From the NCBI GenBank assembly GCA_976551045.1, contig CDPCPM010000120.1, positions 3,348,001-3,412,000 of the forward strand: DNA of 64,000 nt, read 5' to 3'. Under the pieces are notes generated by a model. That model was not told the origin of the DNA. It saw only the letters and a list, made by a program, of their open reading frames with translations, and did not search any database. Of the stretch, positions 716 through 39,053 are shown one piece after another. Made by a program: the position numbers and the translations under genes. Source of the DNA: Glaucostegus cemiculus (taxonomy: Eukaryota). Every line of letters starts with the position of its first letter. Position 1 is the stretch's first letter.

Positions 716-2239
716 CTATTGTTTCAGGGGATAGCAGGTTAGCAAAAACAGGTTGCTGTGTGGGTGAATAAGAACAATTGTTTAAAACACCAGTGAGACT
801 GAAAATCTTAGTGCTGAAACAAAGTGCTGGAGCGAATGAATATCCCACTGAGAAATGAAAAGATTGTTGTCCTGATGGGTGTGAAAGTGCCCAGAAATGT
901 ACACAAGGTTGTTCTCCTTCAGTTTTACTCCATGTTCAACAGGACAGCACTTTTGCTTTTGTCTTTTGGGATTATATAATAAATTTCAAGCCCTTCTGTC
1001 TTCCAACATTTTTGATTATATTCTTGCCTTGTATTTGTCTTTGGTGAAATGGAACTTCTCTGATTTTTTTTCCTTGATGCCAACATCTCTTGTCCAGTCA
1101 CAGAGAAGCTTGTATTCTAATTACAATATTCTGACTAGGCTGCAGATCATATTAACATCAGTAATTGTTTGTGCCTGATGTAAGTGATTTCCTCCAGAGA
1201 GCCAAGCTCTATTTCAACATCAGATGGATCATTAACAACACATCCAACAGCTGTATGCATTGTCATATTGAAAAGGGGATGAAGTTCAATGAAAGGTGGT
1301 TGCAGGAAATGTACTGATTACACAGCTGAGCACTGTGAGTTGAGTGAAATGTCAAAAAGTTGGTGTTATGGAGCAAAATTGCTATTCAAGAACTGAATAG
1401 GTAGATGTTAACATGAGAGTCCATTAACTTGAGAGACATACCTCACCCATTTATGTGGAGACACTTGAAGGGTATCAGGCTACAACTTACTTTGCTACCA
1501 AGGCTGTAACTTAGGATTTTAATTTTTCAATGTCTATAACATTAAAGGCCCTAATAACGTATACATTTTCCTGTTGACTCAGATGTTCACAGGGCTTCAA
1601 GACTAGAGTTGGGGCAGATTTTAAAAAATGATATTTGGAGCCTGAGAGTGTATCAGGGTACACCAGCCTGTTCCCATTGGAAGAGGCCAGACTGTGCAGA
1701 GGAGATGGTCAACTGTGGTGGGAAGAAAAGGCCTATGGTGAGCCCCTCTTCCTAAACAGTGTCTCTCCCATGGAACAGCTGAGCAAATCCAAAAGTAAAG
1801 CTCCCTCGTGGATTCAGAATACAGATACCCTACTTTGTTGACAGCACCCCAGAATTATTCCTGAAAGGGAACTTAAGAGGAGAGAATATGTGTCAAGTGA
1901 TGGGTGTAGTTATAGATGTGGCTGATGTAAATCTAAAATATAATTCCTCCCTCATTAGCATTATTTTTGCTTCATAAACGAATCGTACTGAGGAATAAAG
2001 AAGCTATCCATCCAAAGAATCTGAAATCCATTTCACCTCAGAAGATGGCTTTGTCAATGGTGTTGACTTCGATGGTGGATGAGTCACCATGTCTCCAAGA
2101 TATCCTGCTTTACTTTTAATCTTTGGGGTTCCAGGAAAGGAATGTCTTTCCTAGTTCCATACCTGTTGTTTTGAAGCAGCAGCCACTTTGAGCACTGCAA
2201 ACTCACACAAACAACATGACTGACTACACTTACCACAAA

Positions 2240-2466
2240 AGAACTTCTCGCAGAAGGTGGCATATCTCTAGAATTCTCTACCGCAAAGGATTGGGGAGCT
2301 AGGTCACTGGGGATATTTCAAGAGTAAGTAAATACATTTAGGGAATCAATAGGGTTGAGACACAAAAGAGGAGATGAGGCTGATGCAGATCAGCCACGAT
2401 AATATTGAATGGTGGGGCAGGCTTGAGGGCTGAGTAGCCTATTCCTGCTCCCATTTTCTTATGTTA
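2240..2466 (+). mobile_element. CR1 LINE 3' end fragment
   Basis: End of ORF2-like sequence followed by the typical CR1 3' UTR gatcagccacgat...gaatggtggggcaggcttgagggctgagtagcctattcctgctcc...ttcttatgtt. Confidence 0.85.
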
Positions 2467-2474
2467 CTGCGTTT

Positions 2475-2550
2475 TTAAGTGGCTACAGAGCACTTTGTAA
2501 CATCCTGAAAGGGAGGTGAAAGATGTTAAATCGATTCAAGCCTTTCCTTT
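2475..2550 (+). mobile_element. Degenerate Deu-SINE/L2-type 3' tail
   Basis: ggctacagagcactttgtaacatcctga...gtgaaagatgttaaat...caagcctttc resembles the tail of the element at 43870-43940. Confidence 0.5.
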
Positions 2551-4477
2551 TTAATCATAGTGTAGAAATAAAAATGTTGAAAATAGCATTTAAGAAATAC
2601 TTCTTTTTATTCTGCTAAAACTTCTTGTGAAACTTTTTTAAAAATCTATCAGTAGTATAAGTTGTTATTACTTTTATTAAACCTCGTTTGCTTCATAGCA
2701 TAAAAAGGCCAAAACATAAAATCTGAAATTGTGCCAAAATAAAACAAAGAAGTTGTATCATATTGCACCCACTTAAATGTGAGCAAACATTTGCGCCATT
2801 TATTTCAACTGAATGCATTTAATACCGAGAGTGCACTAACACTTCTTACTGGAAACTATAGTTGTATGTGTATGAGTAGTATTGATTTCAACCTTTTGAC
2901 TGGTACAGAGCATAAAGCTACAAATACAAATTAAAGCTAAATTACAATTTACAATGAAAGCAAACATGCTAATCAAGATGCTTTGAAGGAAAACTGATGA
3001 GCTTCATTTTTCCAAATTTTGAGTACTGCCAGTCTTTACAGAATATTTTTTCCTGTTTTTAAAATTAGTACATTGTGTACGGTTAACTTCAAGCTCACTT
3101 CAACACCAGGGGTGCATGTTGAAGTGAAGACACATTTCATGAATGAATGTCTTGGGCACTGAGCTTCAAGTTCCAGAGGTCATATTTGGATTGGTTGCAC
3201 GTCTCTAAACTTTGCAAAATTTTCCACCCATTGATGAAGCTTTCTACCTGGAGGTGGAACTTTAAGAATTGAAGTTTACTGTTCTCTTTGACTGAATTTG
3301 TTTGCTGGCTTCTAGAGGATATTGTAATGACTTGTAAATAAAGAAGTGTCACCAACTTCCTTGAGGAACAGCCACCATTTTCTCATGTGACTGCTGCCAG
3401 GTTTGGGATTCCCACGTGTGTACTGACGCAATTGTAGATGTCCTTAGCTTGCTGACTCCTCTTTGGCAGCCAATTGCATTTCGATGTTTGACTCCTCACG
3501 ACGGAGCATGAAACAGTGCCATTATTGGGGAATTTGCATGTAGACTTGTATTAGGCTGGGTGTGGTGCAGTAACAGCATCTAACACCATTTTTTGCCCCA
3601 CAAATTCCTGTTTTACACCTCTTTTGAAATTTTTTTGCCGATACCTTTGTTTAAAGCTGCAATGGAACTTTCAGAAACAAAGTGGCAAGGATGGAAATTG
3701 CTTTGAGTGCTCCTTTCGTGCTACTCAATTTAGATCAGAAAACGATTTCACAAGGTGCAATAACACCTGAGGTAACGTGCCCTGAAATGTCAGTCAGAGC
3801 TCTGCATTCCTTCCTGAGGATATAGCAGGGGACGCCTCTGCTAATCCTGTTTCACTGATGTGGTATCACTGAACTATGTCATTCACTCCAGGCAGACATA
3901 CAACTAACATCTAGAAAGAATTGGGTTAGTTCTTTTAGGAGCTGTGAAAATTGTCATGTATCAAGCTTCCATGACAACAGACTTATTGAAGGACCTGCCT
4001 TAAATCTGCCATATCAACTGGTTTACTTTGCATAGCTGTAATAACACAATTGCCTTGGAATTGGATGAGACAAAATGCACTTGCCCCTGTATGCTCCCCA
4101 TAAACAGTGCATGAGAAGTCTTCTGTGAATGCTTTGATGCACTTGCACCCATTTCATTCCACAGCATCCCTCACAACAAGTGCACAGTAGAAAGTGCTGG
4201 AGGTGCTCAGCCTGTCAGGCAGCATCTGTGGAGGAAAACACCAGAGTCAATAACTTTCCATTTGAATGAGGGTAATGGAAAGGAAGAAAATCTGTAATGT
4301 CAGATGTGGAGCACAGAAGTTGCTGGAAAAATCGGTAAAAGAGAATGTGTGAATTTTTTTCCGCAGATCAGGCGGCATCTGTGGAGAAAGGAAATCTGAG
4401 TTAATGTTTACAGGTGGATGACACTGCATCAGAACTTGTCAATGACACAAACAGGAAAGGATAGTTTATTGAAATTG

Positions 4478-4577
4478 AGATAAGATAAAGATAAAGATAT
4501 CTTTATTAGTCACATATACATCAAAACACACAGTAAAGTGCATCCTTTGCACAGAGTGCTCTGGGGGCAGCCCACAA
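4478..4577 (-). mobile_element. 5'-truncated SINE (tail type B, same family as 31172-31444)
   Basis: gatatctttattagtcacatatacatcaaaacacacagt...ctgggggcagccc is the reverse complement of the 31370-31440 tail. Confidence 0.9.
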
Positions 4578-4636
4578 TGAGGTGCAAAGACTGGAATGTG
4601 CCCAGATAGAATAGGAGCTTCTGCTCCTTCAGGTTA

Positions 4637-4763
4637 CATAGAACATAGAATATTACATCGGCCCACAATGTTGTGCCTACATTTTATCCTGCTCCAATAT
4701 CTATCTAACCCTTCCCTCCCACATAGCCCTCCATTTCTCTCCCATTCATGCGGCCATCTAAGA
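4637..4763 (-). mobile_element. CR1 LINE 3' tip
   Basis: catagaacatagaa tail repeat, cggcccacaatgttgtgcc stem-loop remnant and CR1 3' UTR-like sequence. Confidence 0.8.
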
Positions 4764-5789
4764 GATATAACATTGTTATACAGTGTAGCAGATCAAAGTC
4801 AGCGTGGTCAGAGTGGGAGAGGAATGGAGGATAAAAGTGACAGGTAACTGGCTCAGGACCTCATGGACTGAACAAAAGTGTGATGCAAAGCTATCACCCC
4901 TCCTGTGCTTGGTTGCTCCAGTGTAGAGGAGACTACATCGTCTGCACCAAATGTAATATGCTGGATTGGAAAATGTACAAACAAATCACTGCTTCATTTA
5001 GAAGGACTGTTTCGGTCACTGATTAGTAGAAATGGAGAAGGTAAAAGGACATATGTGGCATTCCCTGCTGTGAGCAGAGGATTGCTTTGTATATTGCATT
5101 TTTATACATTACTGCCACTAAGCTTCTTTCTCCCGAGGACCTAAATGCTGCCTACTTCTGTTTTTTAACCTAACCTTACTTCAAAATATATGGTGGCAGT
5201 CTATTGCTTTTCTGCATGTGCCTCAAAATCTGCAAGGTTTGTTGCAGGGATTTTTGGGACCTTCCCCCTCCTCCTTTACTGAGGCTTTCACCAGGCTCCA
5301 CCTGGTGGATACAGGAGACGGCAGGAATGAAACGGATGGGAGGGTAATAGCTGAATAACTTGGGCCCTGCTCACTTTTAGATAGTCCGAGGTGGAGAACT
5401 GGTGATTGCTCTGGTAGATTATGGGTGATAGTGGGAGGAATGAAGTCAAAGTAGGAGGAGGAATGTATTGAGAACTAAGGACAGGGCAATGCAGCAGGTT
5501 CCTAGATATATACTGGTAATATTATTCAGGGAACCAACATAGTTTCAGTTGATCTTAATGGTACAATGAGTTTCCTGGAAGCTGATTTCTATCCCTAAAA
5601 CTCTACTAGACACTGCTCCTTTATCTCAATGCATGTTAATTTATCTATGAGATTGCCTGAATCCCAGATGGGCCTTTCTCTGGATTCCTACCGCATCCAC
5701 CAAATTTGTGATGGACATGTTTAATTTTACTTTAAGTCTTCTGTGAAACCATGAACCACCATCACATTGCTGAGGACCACTACCTTCAC

Positions 5790-6550
5790 TTCCACCGTGG
5801 GCAGCCCTGGCAAGGCCAACGTTGATTGCCCATTTCTATCTGTTCTTGAGAAGGTGACGGTGAGCTGCCTTTCTGAACTGCTGCAATCCTTCGGGGGAAG
5901 GTAGTCCCACAGTGCTGTTGGGCAGGAAGTTCATGGACTGAGACCCAATGATGACGAGGGAATGGCAATACACATCCAAATCAGCATGACGTGCAGGTTG
6001 GGGGGGTGGTGGGGGGGGGGGGTGACTCCCGCGGGTGATTCTGCTGCACCTGTGGCCCTTGTCCTTCCTAGTGGTAGAGGCTTTGGGTTTTGAAGGTGCT
6101 GTCGGAGTAGCTTGGGCAATTAACTGTGATGTGTTTTGTAGCTGGGAGTACTGCAGCCTCTGTGCACTCAGTGTGGAGGGAACGAACATTGAGGTGATGG
6201 ATAGAGTGCAAATCAAGTGGGTCACTTTAATCTGAATAGTGTTGAGTTCCTTGAAAGTTGTTGGAGCTACACTCAACCAGGCAAATGAAGAGTATTTCAT
6301 CAAGGTCCTGATTTGTGCTCTGTAGATGATGGAAAGGCTTTGGAGTCTGGACATGAGTCACTTACAGCAGATACTCAGCCTCTCAGTGACTCTTGTAGCC
6401 GCAGCTTTGGTCTAATTGAGTGTTTACGGGGATGTTGCTGCTGGGGTGTTCAGTGATAGACATGTCATTGAATACCATAGGTATGTTGTTAGTCATTCTC
6501 TTGTGGGTGATGATCATTACCTGGCACTTCTGTGGCACACAATGTACATT
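5790..6550 (-). mobile_element. CR1/L2-group LINE, ORF2 C-terminal part and 3' end (decayed)
   Basis: ORF 5836..6354 (LSIIYRAQIRTLMKYSSFAW...QSMNFLPNSTVGLPSPEGLQQFRKAAHRHLLK) and 6383..6610 (PQKCQVMIIT) are homologous to the 8930-10030 copy. Confidence 0.9.
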
Positions 6551-8509
6551 TTCTTTCTCCGTGTAACCGTCATGTAGAAGGATGGTTCTAGGCACCAGCA
6601 GCCATGCCAAAGAATTTTTGTAACAGCAAAGAAGCTCTCAAACTGAAGGACGTCTCATGTGCCTGACTCTAACTCAAGCCCACACACATCTCTGACTCAG
6701 AAGAGGATAAGATCGGATTTCATTTTGTCCAATACCCTGTCAGTACTCAGCTGTCTAGACTCACAAATGAAGTACTGACCACTCCAGCAATACATCAACC
6801 AACACTCATGAAACAATTACAGCAAGAATTAAACCCTTTAGGATAAGAGGGAAGAAGAAAATTGATTGTAAAAACATTTCAACTACCCACCTCTTCTTAA
6901 GTACTCTGCTGTGTGGTATTCAATTGGATTAGATTGGAAGTGGATGAGTTATACTGATGTAAGACTCAGGCATAGTTGGAAATCCTGCTGTTTACTGCAT
7001 TTGAACACTGTGAAGTTACTCTTTGCACATGCTATCTTCTTAATTTGAAAAATGTGGCCATCAGCCACCTAACTCAGCAGAAAGGTTGCTGGTGGACAAC
7101 ATAATAATGAGAAGCTCCAGAAAATGGATTTAGTGAAATAAAATTTAAAGGCAGTGCAGAAACTAATCACACAAGTAACTAGAAAATAAATAAAGGAAAG
7201 TAAGAATGAAGCTTGAAGTAAAGGCTCTGATACAGAAAACTCACAAAAGAACAGTGGAAATACGACTTTGGGAGTGTTTTGTCAAAAAATCAGACGCAGG
7301 TGAGATTATAATTATTAATGATTTAAAAATTACAAGAAAGTACAAAAAGGATGTAATCTGTGTAAAAGGTGGGCATGGGGCTTGTGAATAAAATGAATCC
7401 TAAAAGAGGAACCTTTTTCACGTAGAGGGTATTGGGCTGCTATTTCATCTGAGTTCACTGGCTGGGTCAACAAAGCCAACTTCATCCTCCTTGGACTGGT
7501 GAGCTATGATGAACCTTAGTTCCCTGGCAAGCACTTTGCTGAGCATAATGAGATCAAGTTTAGTACACAGCTTTGTTTTGATGATTTCTCAGTTGAATTC
7601 ACATGCCAGTTTAGTGTGATATTTAGTTAAGCCCCTCAGGGTGGTCAAATAAGATAACATTTCAGTGCATTTACACCCTGCCAAGTACACATTGTAATGA
7701 AATAAGATCAACTTTTACACAGACTTGCTTTCATTCCTTCAGTGAGCTTCTCTTCCATTTTATTGTCATAGTTATGCCAGATTCCATCTTAAGAATTCTC
7801 TGGAGGCAGAATAGACCAAATTCAGTTTGTGATTATTGAAATGAGTTTTAATCTATTTTTGATACATTTTTAAAATTTCTTCAGTTACTTTGGAGAATAT
7901 TTTCTATTTTTAAATTATCATTGAACTCTTGAGTTTGCTACCAAAGAGGCATGTTTGGAACAAAAACAATACTTTTGTTATACTTTTAAAAGAACATTGA
8001 CAACCTTACTAGACACTTTGTCCTTCCTGTTCACAATAACCTTGCTCTTTGGATTGCAATTGTTAGGAGACAAAACCAATTGGCTAACATATAAAACTGA
8101 AAAAAAAAACAAGAACAATTCTTTTTTAAGAAGAAGAAATTTGCCCTCTGTCTATTGAACTATGAATTGTACTCTGCTTCCATGATCAGTTTTCGCTTCC
8201 ACATTGACATGGGCTTACTCCCCTGGGCATTGTCTTAAAATGGCTCTGGTCTACTTTCCACTGGATGGTGGATGATCACTGCACTCCACTGCTAAGTCTA
8301 AACAAACTTAAAAGGTGTAACCAAAAACATATAGACATTCATGTACAGCAGTTTCCAACTGTATTGAAGTTCTTGCAAAGAAAAATCTGCCACAAAACAA
8401 TCTGATAATTGCAAATTCAACAAAATAAAAATAATGCCGGATAAATCCACCATTGAAAATCCAATTGTGACAGAAGATGAGAAAGCCAGTTATTTGTGTA
8501 AAGGCAATG

Positions 8510-8770
8510 TTGTAGCTGTTAAGTTACTGTTCTAGTCAAACAGAAGCCTGAGCTAACAGTACAGATATCTAAGTTCAAATCCCATAATGGCAGTTGTGGA
8601 ATTCAAATTCAGTTAATAATATGGGACTTTTTAAAGTCAAATTAGTTATTCATAATAAAGACCAGAAAACTTCTGGATTGTCGTAAAACCCTTCTGGTTC
8701 ATTAACGTGCTTCAAGGGAGAAAACTCAACATCCTTACCTGGTCTTATTGTTATGTGACTCCAGGTTAAA
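8510..8770 (+). mobile_element. Decayed tRNA-derived SINE
   Basis: B-box-like agttcaaatccc at about 8571, followed by ggaattcaaattc...gattgtcgtaaaacccttctggttcattaa...tccttacctggtct...atgtgactccag, which I recognise as a common chondrichthyan SINE body. Confidence 0.7.
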
Positions 8771-8929
8771 TGTGCTAAATGGGATAGACTTGGAAAGATC
8801 TGGCAGTGCAAGAGTGGACACCCATGAAGGCCTGTGGACAACCAGCAGCAGCACTTGCACTGTACACCACCACAATTTGTAACCTATTGGCCTGATATAT
8901 CAATGTACTGCTACTATTAGAGTAACTGA

Positions 8930-10030
8930 GAGTGACAACCCCTGACATCAAGGCAACCCTTGACAGAGTATGACATTATGGTGGACTCTGATATAACTGA
9001 AGTTAATGGGCATCAGTAGGAAAAAAAAACTCCAGCTGTCAGGGCCATATCTTGCACCAAGTAAAATGGGTATGATTGATGGAGGTTGATCATTCCTGCC
9101 CTAGGACATCACTTCAGGAGTTCTCACTGCAGTGTCCTTAACCCAACCATCTTCAGCTGCTTCATCAATGACCTTCTCCCGAACATAAGATTCAGTTCAA
9201 TTCCATTTCCTTAGCAAATTAAGCAGCCAATGCCTGCATGCAGCAAGACCAAGACAAAATTCAGGCATGGGCTGGCAAAAGGCAAGTAACATTCATGCCT
9301 CAAAAGTGCCAGGCAATGACCATCTCCAACAAGAGTGAGTGTGACCACTTTGCTTTGACATTCAGTTGCATTACTATCACCAAGTCCACCACCATTAACA
9401 TCCTGGGGGTCACCATTGAAGATAAATTCAATTGGCCCACCCATGTACAAACTGGCTAAAAGACAATTCAAGGCCTGGGACTCTTGCAGATCATGACTCA
9501 CCTTCTGATGCTCCAAAGTCTTTTCATCCTCTACACTCCCAAGTTAAGAGTACAATAGAATACTCTCCACTTGCCCAGATGAATCCACCTTGAAGGCTGC
9601 TCAGGAAGTTCGACAGGATCCAGGACAAAGCAGTCTGCTTGCTTGTTGCTTCATCCATCATGCAAAACACCAACTCCTTCGCTGCCGATACATAAAAATA
9701 TTCTAGCCTTGGCTACTCTGACAGCACCTCCCAAACCCAGGACTCGACCAGGAAGATGGACAAGAATACTGGGTACTTGGGAACATCACCATCTACTGGT
9801 TACTTTCCAAACTGCATGCCATTGCTGACTTGGAAATATTTCTTTGCTCCTTCTTTGTTCCTTCATCATCAGTGGGTCTAAATCCTGGAACTCCCTCCCC
9901 AGTAGCACTGTGGGAGTACCTTTAACAGAAGAACTGCAGCAGTTCAAAGCAGCAGCTCACCACCACCTTCTCAAGGGCAGATAGGGATGGCAATAAATAC
10001 TGGCCTGACCAAAGATCTCCCGATCCTGAA
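8930..10030 (+). mobile_element. CR1/L2-group LINE, RT domain to 3' end (decayed)
   Basis: Motifs DIKATLDRV, GV...SVLNPTIFSCFINDL and ORF 9238..9459 QQDQDKIQAWAGKRQVTFMPQKCQAMTISNK; 3' end ctcaagggcagatagggatggcaataaatactggcc. Confidence 0.9.
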
Positions 10031-31171: not shown

Positions 31172-31444
31172 GGCGCAGTAGTGTAGCAGTTCGTGTAACG
31201 CTATTACAGTGCCAGTGACCCAGGTTCAATTCCTGCTGCTGCCTGTAAGGAGTTTGTATGTTCTCCCTGTGTCTGGTTTCCTCCCACATTCCAAAGACGT
31301 ACAGGTTAGGAAGTTCTGGGCATGCTATGTTGGTGCCGGAAGTGTGGCGACATGTGCGGGCTGCCCCCAGAAAACTCTACGCAAAAGATGTATTTCACTG
31401 TGTGTTTCGATGTACATGTGACTAATAAAGATATCTTATCTTAT
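31172..31444 (+). mobile_element. tRNA-derived V-SINE-type element (tail type B)
   Basis: Same head as the 16380 SINE (B box ggttcaattcc) but a different 3' half ending gatgtacatgtgactaataaagatatcttatctt. Confidence 0.95.
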
Positions 31445-31445
31445 A

Positions 31446-31865
31446 AAACATGATGATGCTGGAGGAACTCAGTAGGCCAGGCAGCATCTGTGGAGAAAAG
31501 CAGGCAGTCAATGTTTCAGGTCAGGGCTTTCTTCAGGACTGAACATAGGGAAAGGGGAAGCCTAATATATCAGAGGGAAAAGCAGAGCAGTGACAGGTTG
31601 AGAAAAGAGGGGAGGTGGGGTGTGTCCAAGGTGGTGATAGATAGATGCAGGTAAGAGCTAGTGATAGGCAGGTGCAGGGAAGGAGGGGAGAGCAGATCCA
31701 CCAGGTGATGGGTGAAAGGAGAGAGAGGAAAAAAGGGGGTAAAAAAAGAGAGAGGCTAGGAAAGGGAAGAAGAGAAGAAGCATGGTGGGGGGAAATGTGG
31801 GGAAGGGGGTGGGGATTTCTTAAAGTGGGAGAATTCAAAGTTCATGCCGTTAGGCTGCAAGGTTA
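31446..31865 (-). mobile_element. 5'-truncated Penelope-like element (endonuclease C-terminus, pyrimidine-rich UTR, terminal repeat)
   Basis: Minus strand TLQPNGMNFEFSHFK at about 31820-31863; terminal repeat tccacagatgctgcctggcctactgagttcctccagcatc. Confidence 0.92.
31505..31541 (-). ncRNA. Minimal type I hammerhead ribozyme motif (degenerate) in Penelope terminal repeat
   Basis: Minus strand reads cagtc CTGAAGA aagccctgacct GAAA CA TT gactg: both core boxes intact, perfect 5-bp stem I, weak stem II, and CA where CG would be expected. Confidence 0.75.
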
Positions 31866-33930: not shown

Positions 33931-35819
33931 AGAGACCAAGCAGGCATAGCAGTATCACTCCAAGCTTCCCTCTGCCTGGTGGGTCAGACCGTAGCTTTGG
34001 GCTGGACTTCACCCAGGCAGACTTGCCTCCCCTCCTCTAACAGAAGTTCTGAGTCCTGAATATGAAACTGAAATATGAAACTGGCCATACATTCCCTCCT
34101 GTCTCTCCTACCCCTCCATCTACTGATCTCCATACAGCAACATTTTTGGCAAGTTGCAGCAGTTGTCCTTCTGCAACATATGTGCCATTTAAGGCCTGGA
34201 TCCCACAGTTGCAGCATGAAAATTGCAATCAAGGATTTTCAGGCATGTGCACTGAACCAGGAAAACTGCTCCAATAGCCAAATTCGACAATGCTTTTTAG
34301 TGATAGTCATGTTGGAAGATCTCCACCATGTTAGTGCTTTGGAAATTACTGTCAGTGCACTTGAAGGTCACAAATCAGACCAGGGATACTTTTAGGCTGA
34401 AGGTTGTAATCATCCTGCCCCAATCGAGACTTGTAAAGCAATTAGCTTTTCCCATGATCTTGTGAGCTGGATTACAATGAGCAAGACTGTTCTAAATTCT
34501 GCATCCGCACACTGGTGGCGACTGCTGATGATGGATTCATGACTTCTAAGGTATGATTAATAAAGCTGGAATTTGCCCATAAACTTATTTGACAGGAGCA
34601 ACCATGAGAATATTTTCCATTAGTTTAGTTTGTGATCATTAACCATACTTGCAAATGTTGATATACTGAAAGGTATTTAAAAATTCAGTGAAGGCACACG
34701 TGCATCCAGCCTGTGAAAGGTGTATTCTGGTGACTCAGGGACTGATAAATAATCAACATAAATCCTGCAAATCATCACAACATACATAGGTGTTAGTATA
34801 TTCTGTAAAGATGGAAGTGCAGAACTTTTAAGTAAAATTGTACACCCCAAAATCTTCAATCTGGCCAGGTTGTAATATTCATAACAAGAAGATAAATAAA
34901 ACACCTTAAAATTATTTTTTTTCTTTCAGTTTCATTAAACATCACATCATATTTGTAAAATTCAATCACTATGCAGGATTAGCAAATTGTTGAGGCTTTT
35001 GCAGAATAAAGTATAACTGAAGAAATATGTCATCTGTTCTGTCAGTATACTAAAAATGTATTGTGTAAATAATATACCCTTGCATAGAGCTATTCTAATC
35101 TTTGTCAAGTCAACAGAGGTCACAAGTCAGCTTTTGCAGAGTGAAATGAGCTCACAAATGCATGATTCCACATAAGACTTTGTTTATATCGGGCGATGAA
35201 AGGATGTTTGTAAGTAAATCAATGGTAATACTGACAAATACAGCATCTGAGAGCATTGGATCACTTATCACATTGATTTGCACTGCAACATAATATGAAG
35301 ACTATACACAGAAACTTTAGTAAGTCAGCCTACAAATTAACTCATTTGATATTGACCTTTCAATTCCAACCATATTATAAGTGCCTTGAATGATTAATGG
35401 AAAGAATTTTCAGCTAAGGCAGCATTTGTTTTGTTAAATGGTTTTCTTTACAAGTATATGTGTAAAATTGGCAAATACAATGGTGCAAGTCAGATCTTTA
35501 ACTCTTAAGTTTAAATCAATTGAAATGAATTCTTGCCTTGGTGCAATGCTGTTCAGTGATGTCGATTTCCTGGTCTGAGTTTGAGTTGGTAGAAAGGTTC
35601 CTTACAATGAGTCTGACTTGTGTTAGGATCTGAAGGCATTTAATATTAATGGGTAAAAAGTGAAAGTATAACTGATACCTTCATGTTGAGGAGCCCACAT
35701 TTTTGACAAAATATCAATAGATATTATGGAAAGAATTTGGGGAAAGGAAGGAAACCGGTACTAAGTAGGTCAAGTAGCATCTGTGGAGAGAAAAATACCT
35801 TTTTAGATGAAATATTTCA

Positions 35820-35990
35820 CTTGATTGACACCATCCAACACTATTTATTTATTCTCCCCACCACTGGCACACCATATCTGCAATGTGTATCCCCTGCAAA
35901 ACTCATTGAGCTTATCCTGACAGCACCTCCCAAACTCTACGGCCAAGAAAGACAAGGATAGCAGGCACATCAGAACACCAACACCTTTTT
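35820..35990 (+). mobile_element. CR1/L2-group LINE fragment
   Basis: cttgattgacacc...gacagcacctcccaaac...aagacaagg...gaacaccaacacc parallels 9635-9795. Confidence 0.7.
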
Positions 35991-37704: not shown

Positions 37705-38520
37705 CAGAATCAGAATCAGAATCAGTTTTTATTGTCACAACCATATACATACATAGTATGCATAGGAGCGAGATACCGTCCTCCTCAGGTGCTCGTCCCA
37801 TTAAATAACAACCAACAGAGACACACAGACACACTTAACAGAGTAAACATTAAAAAACATTAAACATTAAAAACTACGGAAGTTAAAATTAAATTAATAC
37901 GCAGATTAAATTATAAATGGCCGGTAAATAAATAAATAGTTATTAAAGTGAACGGGCTGGTGGCGGGCATTTAAAGTGCTGGTGCATTTCTGTGCACCTA
38001 GCATCTCTTAGTGTTAATAAGGAAGATGGAGGGATGAGAGAGTTTGCAGTTCTGATGGCTTGCGGAAAGAAGCTATTGTTCAGCCTGGTCGTTCTTGCCC
38101 TGATACACTTAAGCCTCCTCCCTGATGGCAAAATTGTAAAGAGGTGATGGGAGGGGTGAGAAGGGTCCGCCATTATGCTTTTGGTCTTCCTCACACAACG
38201 GTCTTTGTATATGTCTGCGAGGGATGGAAGCGAGACACCTATGATCCTCTCCGCAGCCCTAACTATCCTCTGGAGGCACTTCCGCCCAGCAGCTGAGCAG
38301 CTTCCAAACCAAACAGTGATACATTGGGTTAGGATGCTCTCAATGGTCCCTCTATAGAAGGTTTTCATGACGGAGGGATGGGAGTTCGCTTTCCTCAGTC
38401 TCCGCAGGAAGTAGAGGCGTTTCTGAGCTTTCTTCGTGAGGGCCATAATGTTAGTGGACCAGGTCAGGTCGTCGGTGATGTGTACCCCCAGGAACTTGGT
38501 GCTGCGTACTTGTTCCACAG
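37705..38520 (-). mobile_element. Young 5'-truncated Rex1/Babar-type LINE
   Basis: Uninterrupted 191-aa frame 37943..38518 (KFLGVHITDDLTWS...KAQKRLYFLRRLRK...FYRGTIESILT.CITVWFG...DPSHPSHHLF.ILPSGRR...SFFPQAIR), 3' UTR, aataaa and (attctg)n tail. Confidence 0.95.
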
Positions 38521-38801
38521 CAGAATTTTAAACAAATTCCTACTCATACCTAGTAATACACAAACTTTTCATCTGGGAATGTTAAAAATAAATAGATAAA
38601 ATTAAAATAAATGATTATAAATAATTTCAGCATGAATCATACATATTCTGTTTTTGTAAGTATGGGCTCCAGCTACAAGACTGTTTATCAAGATCTACAA
38701 AATGTGGTCTCACAGAAAAATTCCCTCATCTTATTACTTGTTCATCTTTTCCTTTTAGTTAAATAGCATGACAAAAAAATTATGTGACATAAGAACAAAA
38801 A

Positions 38802-39053
38802 GCACTATAGCGTAGCGGTTAGCACGACGCTGTTACAGTGCCAGCGACCGGGGTTCGATTCCTATCGCTGACCATAAGGAGTTTGTACGTTCTCCCGTGT
38901 TTGCGTGGGTTTTCTCCAGGTGCTCCGGTTTCCTGCCACATTCTAAAAGACGTATGGGTAGGTTAATTTGGGGGTTTAAAACGGGCGGCGCGGACTCGTT
39001 GGGCCGAAAGGGCCTGTTACCACGCTGTAAATAAAATTTAAAAAATTTATTTA
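38802..39053 (+). mobile_element. Young V-SINE-type element (tail type A)
   Basis: Near-identical to 16380-16636, including the B box ggttcgattcc and the gggccgaaagggcctg tail. Confidence 0.95.

Follow-up and report, generated by a model that had tools for sequence, protein, structure and literature searches.

The window, that is, the whole 64-kb stretch of DNA analysed here, holds four sites at which minimal hammerhead ribozymes had been predicted, and all four are remnants of a single family of repeats, namely the 3' terminal repeat (pseudo-LTR, pLTR) of Penelope-like elements. The members of this family in the window are listed below; relative positions (-358, +65 and so on) are counted from the predicted cut site.

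31445..31864, minus strand: copy 1, the 5'-truncated 3' end of a subfamily-A Penelope-like element, 88.6% identical to the subfamily majority over -358..+65
31505..31541, minus strand: minimal type I hammerhead of copy 1, predicted cut between 31510 and 31509
4363..4436, minus strand: copy 2, subfamily-B-like terminus (profile E=5.2e-5 and alignment)
47989..48095, minus strand: copy 3, subfamily-B-like terminus without tail (profile E=2.6e-3 and alignment)
48575..48686, plus strand: copy 4, subfamily-B-like terminus with tail (profile E=1.2e-5 and alignment)
4186..4265, minus strand: decayed terminus 153 nt from copy 2, hammerhead unrecognisable (profile E=1.3e-12; repeat family D5)
48322..48389, minus strand: subfamily-B terminus fragment with tail, between copies 3 and 4 (profile E=6.9e-3; repeats D8 and I24)
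17347..17490, minus strand: decayed terminus with tail, hammerhead core lost (profile E=5.4e-10)
35758..35830, minus strand: decayed terminus remnant (profile E=1.9e-6)
42030..42147, plus strand: heavily decayed terminus remnant, a weak match (profile E=0.022)
24602..25665, plus strand: decayed Penelope-like body, N-terminal region into the reverse transcriptase (RT), hammerhead deleted (tblastn and comparison with element L059)

The four hammerhead stretches lie exactly where the original prediction placed them, at 31505-31541, 4399-4436 and 48057-48095 on the minus strand and at 48575-48611 on the plus strand, and on their downstream side all of them adjoin one common conserved segment. A profile was built solely from sequence downstream of the hammerhead, and since it matches each of the four (E=1.7e-19 for 31505, 5.2e-5 for 4399, 2.6e-3 for 48057 and 1.2e-5 for 48575) they are true family members; the same profile had no hits in a reversed 600-kb sample. 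The layout that the copies were said to share, CTGANGA followed by GAAA and TH, is found at 31510-31536 on the minus strand, whereas the cores of the other three copies are altered, so that both core boxes are kept in one copy of the four. A loose version of the core pattern is barely above chance in the window: it has 18 matches there, overlaps included, shuffled sequence gives 7.2 on average, and a count of 18 was reached in 2 of 100 shuffles. A strict descriptor that asks for both core boxes, at least 3 bp of helix I and at least 4 bp of helix II has no match within the 64 kb.

The terminus of copy 1 comprises the last ~20 codons of the GIY-YIG endonuclease, a pyrimidine-rich 3' UTR, the hammerhead and the downstream segment, and the tail is absent. 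It is 79.8% identical to the 3' end of element L315 and shows 92-94% identity to its 29 best other copies in the genome. Its hammerhead has both boxes intact, a helix II of ~2 bp, and has lost the ACGU palindrome of helix III. By alignment, copy 2 carries A9C, a T inserted in GAAA and a broken helix II; copy 3 carries G12A and a 2-nt insertion near helix III; and copy 4 carries A13G with stem I out of register. Copies 3 and 4 are divergent in orientation and 480 nt apart. The expectation that the copies are mutated and possibly inactive was thus correct, because all four are damaged and none passes the strict descriptor, and from their sequences they are likely to be unable to cut. The folding energy of none of the four is better than that of its own shuffles (z from -0.05 to -1.31). 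Since the intact relatives L155 and L034 likewise have no z-score beyond -1.3, the folding energy of a single copy does not discriminate. An Rfam scan of the window gave no hammerhead family at E<=5, a scan in which minimal hammerheads may score below the models.

Six further remnants in the window are found by the downstream profile at E<=0.022, plus a partial hit at the first bases of the window, and about ten remnants per 64 kb is the ordinary density for this genome. The body at 24602-25665 matches the query P0001 in tblastn (E=5e-29 and 5e-26) and is 72.5% identical to L059 over 1 kb. Its RT motif DVQSL is joined straight to the post-hammerhead segment, which is read as an internal deletion of ~2 kb that removed the remaining RT, the endonuclease and the hammerhead. 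Other repeats lie among these remnants. A young repeat is present in three pieces that are 83-96% alike (37727-38527 on the minus strand, 40656-40849 and 60479-61060); its 193-aa ORF matches the Pfam family ALKBH8_N (E=5e-17), and it is likely the 3' end of a LINE. A second abundant repeat, SINE-like and 76-95% alike among copies, occurs at 16385-16625, 38802-39042, 31172-31437, 63548-63836 and 4490-4576, and one of its copies abuts the 3' end of hammerhead copy 1. A tandem array of an 18-19-nt near-palindromic unit at 17079-17283 lies beside the terminus at 17347-17490. The four hammerhead copies are themselves ordinary transposon debris of little importance.

The family is large. A pattern for the intact minimal hammerhead, with positions 4, 7, 9 and 17 left free, has 1,856 exact matches genome-wide, mostly canonical among the first 100 listed, and the agtt/aact pattern of subfamily B has 27; the reversed control gave 0 for both. 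Sixty stretches of 10 kb (600 kb), taken at round coordinates of large contigs, contain 97 profile hits at 77 sites, with 3 passing the strict descriptor, and extrapolation from the 77 sites gives about 3.7e5 sites in the 2.85-Gb assembly. For the masters of this family the prediction of Penelope-like termini with a minimal type I hammerhead is borne out in core, helices and palindrome. The core C3-U4-G5-A6-N7-G8-A9 and G12-A13-A14-A15.1..U16.1-H17 is present, helix II has 4-5 bp, helix I has 3-5 bp and there is no loop III. The ACGT palindrome at 15.2-16.2 and an extra A at 9/10.1 are the majority state in subfamily A, and both were fixed in the genome-wide patterns for subfamilies A and B. 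At least two subfamilies seeded the window, as had been proposed: 31505 belongs to the young subfamily A, and 4399, 48057 and 48575 align with the agtt/aact subfamily B. Five subfamily-A copies (L217, L232, L239, L251 and L272) have deletions of 10-13 nt between the two short direct repeats of the hammerhead, by which the first core box is lost.

The ORF of L315 matches a 654-aa bamboo-shark protein with an RVT_1 domain (E=4e-43), the single protein hit, from which the genome is probably that of a shark or ray, and a genome search with this protein gave 71 scored matches from 46,172 candidates. The full pLTR-body-pLTR architecture was seen in one decayed element found by this protein search, L329, in which direct terminal repeats at 488-1117 and 3549-4209, 77% alike, flank an RT/GIY-YIG body and each carry one hammerhead, 3.1 kb apart. 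The body matches the bamboo-shark protein and, as read in translation, has a CX4CX2C linker, also found in relatives of L329, and a GIY-YIG domain with the motif YIGET. When 20 long subfamily-A copies were extended, none was full length. In 5 decayed ORFs there was no Pfam domain; among 3 other ORFs Pfam gave a weak RVT_1 in one and GIY-YIG in none. According to the accessible part of PMC8557442, a CX2-5CxxC linker between RT and endonuclease marks Neptune and Nematis, and the elements appear to be of the Neptune type, a label that rests on the linker motif, which is also present in Nematis. A body of RT and C-terminal GIY-YIG endonuclease, flanking pseudo-LTRs with hammerheads, and an inverted partner with a tail at one end are all found, as in EN+ Penelope-like elements. 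In L329 (1020-1700) a pyrimidine tract is followed by an ATG ~20 nt past the cut site; this ATG is in frame with the conserved N-terminal region 600 nt onward, with stops between, and it may be the start of the ORF or a splice acceptor.

The stems of the four copies had been described as covarying, with stem I cagtc/gactg in one copy and agtt/aact in others. At the level of the family this difference is real, and it amounts to one base pair. We parsed 130 copies from 248 hits in a sample for which the hammerhead was not a selection criterion and which is enriched for subfamily-A neighbours. Pair 2.1:1.1 is C-G in 65, T-A in 19, C-A in 23, T-G in 2 and something else in 21 (Fisher P=7e-8, a value that counts copies and not events, the copies not being independent). 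The exchange of C-G for U-A at this pair is compensatory, and it is a single change that was fixed once between subfamilies, and none of the remaining pairs of stem I shows compensation in the 130 copies. In subfamily A the 2.4:1.4 pair is mostly an A.C mismatch, positions 1.4/1.5 being CG in 24, CA in 20, TG in 5 and AA in 1 of 50 copies. Because subfamily A usually has a mismatch here, the perfect 5-bp stem I of 31505 reads as a CpG transition and is probably an accident of CpG decay. The decay at 1.4/1.5 is itself lopsided (CA 20 against TG 5 of 50), which possibly marks a hidden sub-subfamily. Covariation in helix II had been suggested by copy 48575 and was rejected, as double changes at 10.3:11.3 are in no excess over independent decay. 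In a hand count of the first 100 listed of 139 double changes, A-T was seen 48 times against 48.8 expected and C-G once against 1.4 expected under independence.

The inserted copies decay neutrally. In a set of 50 motif-spanning subfamily-A copies, retrieved with a downstream anchor, non-CpG substitutions affect 23 of 473 core positions (4.9%) and 217 of 3888 flank positions (5.6%, P=0.59), and no selection on the hammerhead core was detected in these copies. This bears on the idea that one or more of the window copies are working ribozymes retained by the host. In favour of it, copy 31505 has the two core boxes intact and a stem I of 5 bp. Against it, this copy has a damaged helix II and palindrome, and its stem is accounted for by the CpG decay described above. 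Both boxes are also kept in 18 of the 50 ordinary copies (with the palindrome too in 8), cores decay at the rate of the flanks and the other three window copies have broken cores. We regard host retention as highly improbable.

A position 4 other than U has 140 exact matches genome-wide, and among the first 100 listed it is A in 80, C in 17 and G in 3; a position 9 other than A has 88, with C in 80, T in 5 and G in 3. Since transversions exceed transitions at both core positions and each variant carries its own linked flank diagnostics, U4A and A9C are traits of subfamilies that were widely amplified. Among the 130 copies, unselected for the hammerhead, U4A is found in 20 and A9C in 32, and canonical U4 and A9 in 97 and 88, respectively; in a purely random sample C9 is seen in 8 of 27 readable cores. 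The A9C subfamily mostly lacks the 2.4-1.4 pair of stem I, and an alternative reading of A9C is the insertion of a C between G8 and A9. Most changes in the hammerhead core cost much activity and some natural variants still cut, as stated in the accessible text of PMC3088659; the natural variants named there are U4C, A6C, C3U/G8A and insertions, and U4A and A9C were not found among those named in that text.

How the copies were inserted can be read from their ends. A 40-nt downstream anchor has 1,894 exact matches, and the end sample is made up of 94 of the first 100 of these listed, in contig order; ends are boundaries of gapped BLAST alignments. Most insertions are truncated on the 5' side, their 3' ends are at one or the other of two fixed points, and they often form inverted pairs with a one-sided tail. 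The 3' ends fall at +62..+74 in 45 copies, at +101..+108 in 40 and between in 9. In inverted pairs a tail of ~35 nt is present on exactly one member in 27 of 31, a count in which a few pairs were seen from both sides and both members enter the set of 5' ends; in L329 and L336 the tail continues into the body. Hammerhead stem I starts at -33, and 17 of the 5' ends lie at -34..-26 compared with 5 in the 72 nt upstream (-106..-35; binomial P=9e-13). The remaining 5' ends are 14 within the rest of the hammerhead, 8 downstream and 50 farther upstream. None of the 94 is within 2 nt of the predicted cut site; a stricter boundary method, which mistook internal deletions for ends, put one there. In three copies the end is at -3, and cut RNA may on rare occasions have been used. 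The same 5' edge appears in four sets selected by the hammerhead, in which 10 of 30, 15 of 24, 18 of 25 and 15 of 27 copies share no upstream sequence, the figure for the older B set possibly being inflated by divergence.

The sequence at the 5' edge is TCAGTC, which resembles an initiator motif; as a pyrimidine tract followed by CAG it also looks like a splice acceptor. There is precedent for both readings, since Penelope has an internal initiator-type promoter within its pLTR (PMC2377424, accessible part) and an intron with its end at helix I is known from D. virilis (PMC4209133, accessible part). Because no upstream exon sequence common to the short copies was seen, splicing is the lesser option as the source of the pile-up of 5' ends. 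A stall of the RT at the hammerhead structure would be expected on its 3' side, so an RNA boundary would fit the 5' pile-up better. Several short copies abut an inverted partner, and fold-back template switching could add to the pile-up. Raw RNA reads from three runs of another organism, most of them with 82-95% identity to L155, map to both strands of the repeat and have no position where many molecules begin or end, in fragment libraries of a kind that cannot show a start or a cut.

The most likely explanation, in which we have considerable confidence, is that the sites are neutrally decaying Neptune-type pseudo-LTRs whose masters had a minimal hammerhead, that the copies themselves probably do not cut, and that they were probably inserted by the following route. 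Reverse transcription would start inside the element's own RNA, ~68 or 102 nt downstream of the point at which the hammerhead would cut. A start at the 3' repeat would produce a long truncated copy, and a start at the 5' repeat a copy of ~100-135 nt that ends at an RNA boundary at the 5' edge of the hammerhead; this boundary would likely be where transcription starts, with a splice junction as the other option. Uncut RNA would likely serve as the template. The hammerhead of the masters would be weak and assisted by a dimer or by protein, and two copies could pair through its ACGU palindrome in helix III.

The short pieces had also been suggested to include retrozyme-like units. In that explanation they would be an independent non-autonomous, retrozyme- or SINE-like family with units of ~100-135 nt transcribed from the hammerhead 5' edge and mobilised by the Penelope protein. 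Thirty-nine of the 94 anchored copies do start at or inside the hammerhead, 15 of these being without an inverted partner at >=84% identity, and tandem non-LTR retrozymes derived from the pLTRs of Penelope-like elements, including one chondrichthyan case, are described in the accessible part of a preprint (10.64898/2026.07.22.740005). Short and long copies, however, do not differ in subfamily sequence or in their two 3' ends, and 24 of the 39 short copies adjoin an inverted partner. Whereas retrozymes are by definition tandem hammerhead units, no tandem hammerhead arrays are present among the 94 anchored copies or in the window; one short local duplication, L147, was seen. The suggestion is therefore not supported for these pieces, whose 3' ends are of two discrete kinds and which lie inverted with a single tail, as ordinary Penelope insertions do, and an independent family is quite improbable.

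A proposal of 2014 bears on the masters themselves: the 5' and 3' repeats would form a dimer in which their hammerheads cut, and this cleavage or a circularisation would be required for transposition. In keeping with this, subfamilies A and B both retain the core, the extra A that follows A9, G10.1-C11.1 and the palindrome at 15.2-16.2, one pair in stem I is compensatory, L329 carries its two hammerheads 3.1 kb apart, and dimers of the Schistosoma motif have low but detectable cleavage (PMC4209133, accessible part). The 5' ends nevertheless avoid the cut site, U4A and A9C reached 20 and 32 of 130 copies, the latter mostly without the 2.4-1.4 pair, and in the accessible text of PMC11167929 dead mutants of the anole Poseidon insert normally in vitro. 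We consider required cleavage to be unlikely. Since the 5' ends avoid the cut site and the U4A and A9C subfamilies were amplified, both of which fit the in vitro data, hammerhead cleavage is probably not required for the insertion and spread of the element. The motif may not be wholly idle: the canonical core is kept across most subfamilies and one stem I pair is compensatory, which argues that something selected for the hammerhead fold in the masters.

Returning to the insertion route preferred here, a more specific form of it can be offered tentatively, as a possibility we would rate somewhat below even. The RNA of shark and ray Neptune elements would start at the 5' stem of the hammerhead, uncut transcripts with a hammerhead at both ends would be copied by the RT from both repeats, giving inverted insertions of a long and a short copy, and the fold would be a protein-binding or dimerising signal and not a cutter. 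If this is true, it would explain how the U4A and A9C subfamilies could spread to tens of thousands of copies, and the genome would then provide in vivo evidence that Penelope elements can transpose without hammerhead catalysis. The function of the Penelope hammerhead is called unclear in the accessible part of PMC8557442, and the present family is a large natural record on its role: the ends that avoid the cut site and the amplified core mutants agree with one in vitro study, and U4A and A9C provide specific variants.

This family is a further case of the Penelope hammerheads already described in the literature. For hammerhead motifs of this sort in sharks and rays, a literature search that covered few subscription journals found nothing beyond one preprint, which sampled one chondrichthyan for retrozymes; on truncation, the cleavage site or dispensability in Penelope-like elements, none of the papers listed went beyond PMC11167929. 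With animal non-LTR retrozymes, going by the accessible parts of PMC7229834 and of the preprint (10.64898/2026.07.22.740005), the family has in common the type I hammerhead, short non-coding units and pLTR ancestry; in retrozymes the units are arrayed in tandem and each has a hammerhead, whereas the copies here are dispersed, solo or inverted, and decayed. Also comparable are the minimal type I hammerheads (min-HHR) with low dimer activity in the pLTRs of metazoan Penelope-like elements. Their description by Cervera and De la Pena in 2014 (PMC4209133, accessible text) shares with ours the lack of a helix III loop, the palindromic 15.2-16.2, the extra nucleotide at 9/10.1, G10.1-C11.1 and a helix I of 4-5 bp, as well as several subfamilies per genome, mostly solo copies and, in full elements, a tandem pair separated by ~3 kb. 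Also reported there are pairs on opposite strands at a distance of 100-700 bp, and 48057 and 48575 form such a pair. The differences are that helix II has 4-5 bp here and 7-8 bp in Schistosoma, that our extrapolated ~3.7e5 remnants compare with 2,000-9,000 descriptor hits, which is a stricter count, and that subfamily-wide U4A and A9C cores, present here, were not found named in that text.

The anole Poseidon (PAc, Anolis carolinensis) is likewise among the closest known systems. In the accessible text of PMC11167929 (Frangieh et al. 2024), the tail is set by two internal sites at which RT begins, and the hammerhead cuts only with protein. The family here differs from Poseidon in its CX4CX2C linker of the Neptune/Nematis type, which Penelope and Poseidon do not have, and in the pile-up of 5' ends at the hammerhead 5' edge, not found described for Poseidon in that text. 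The two have in common a hammerhead at the pLTR-ORF junction, no ends at the cut site, two fixed 3' ends ~35 nt apart and a tail that corresponds to the beginning of the following unit.
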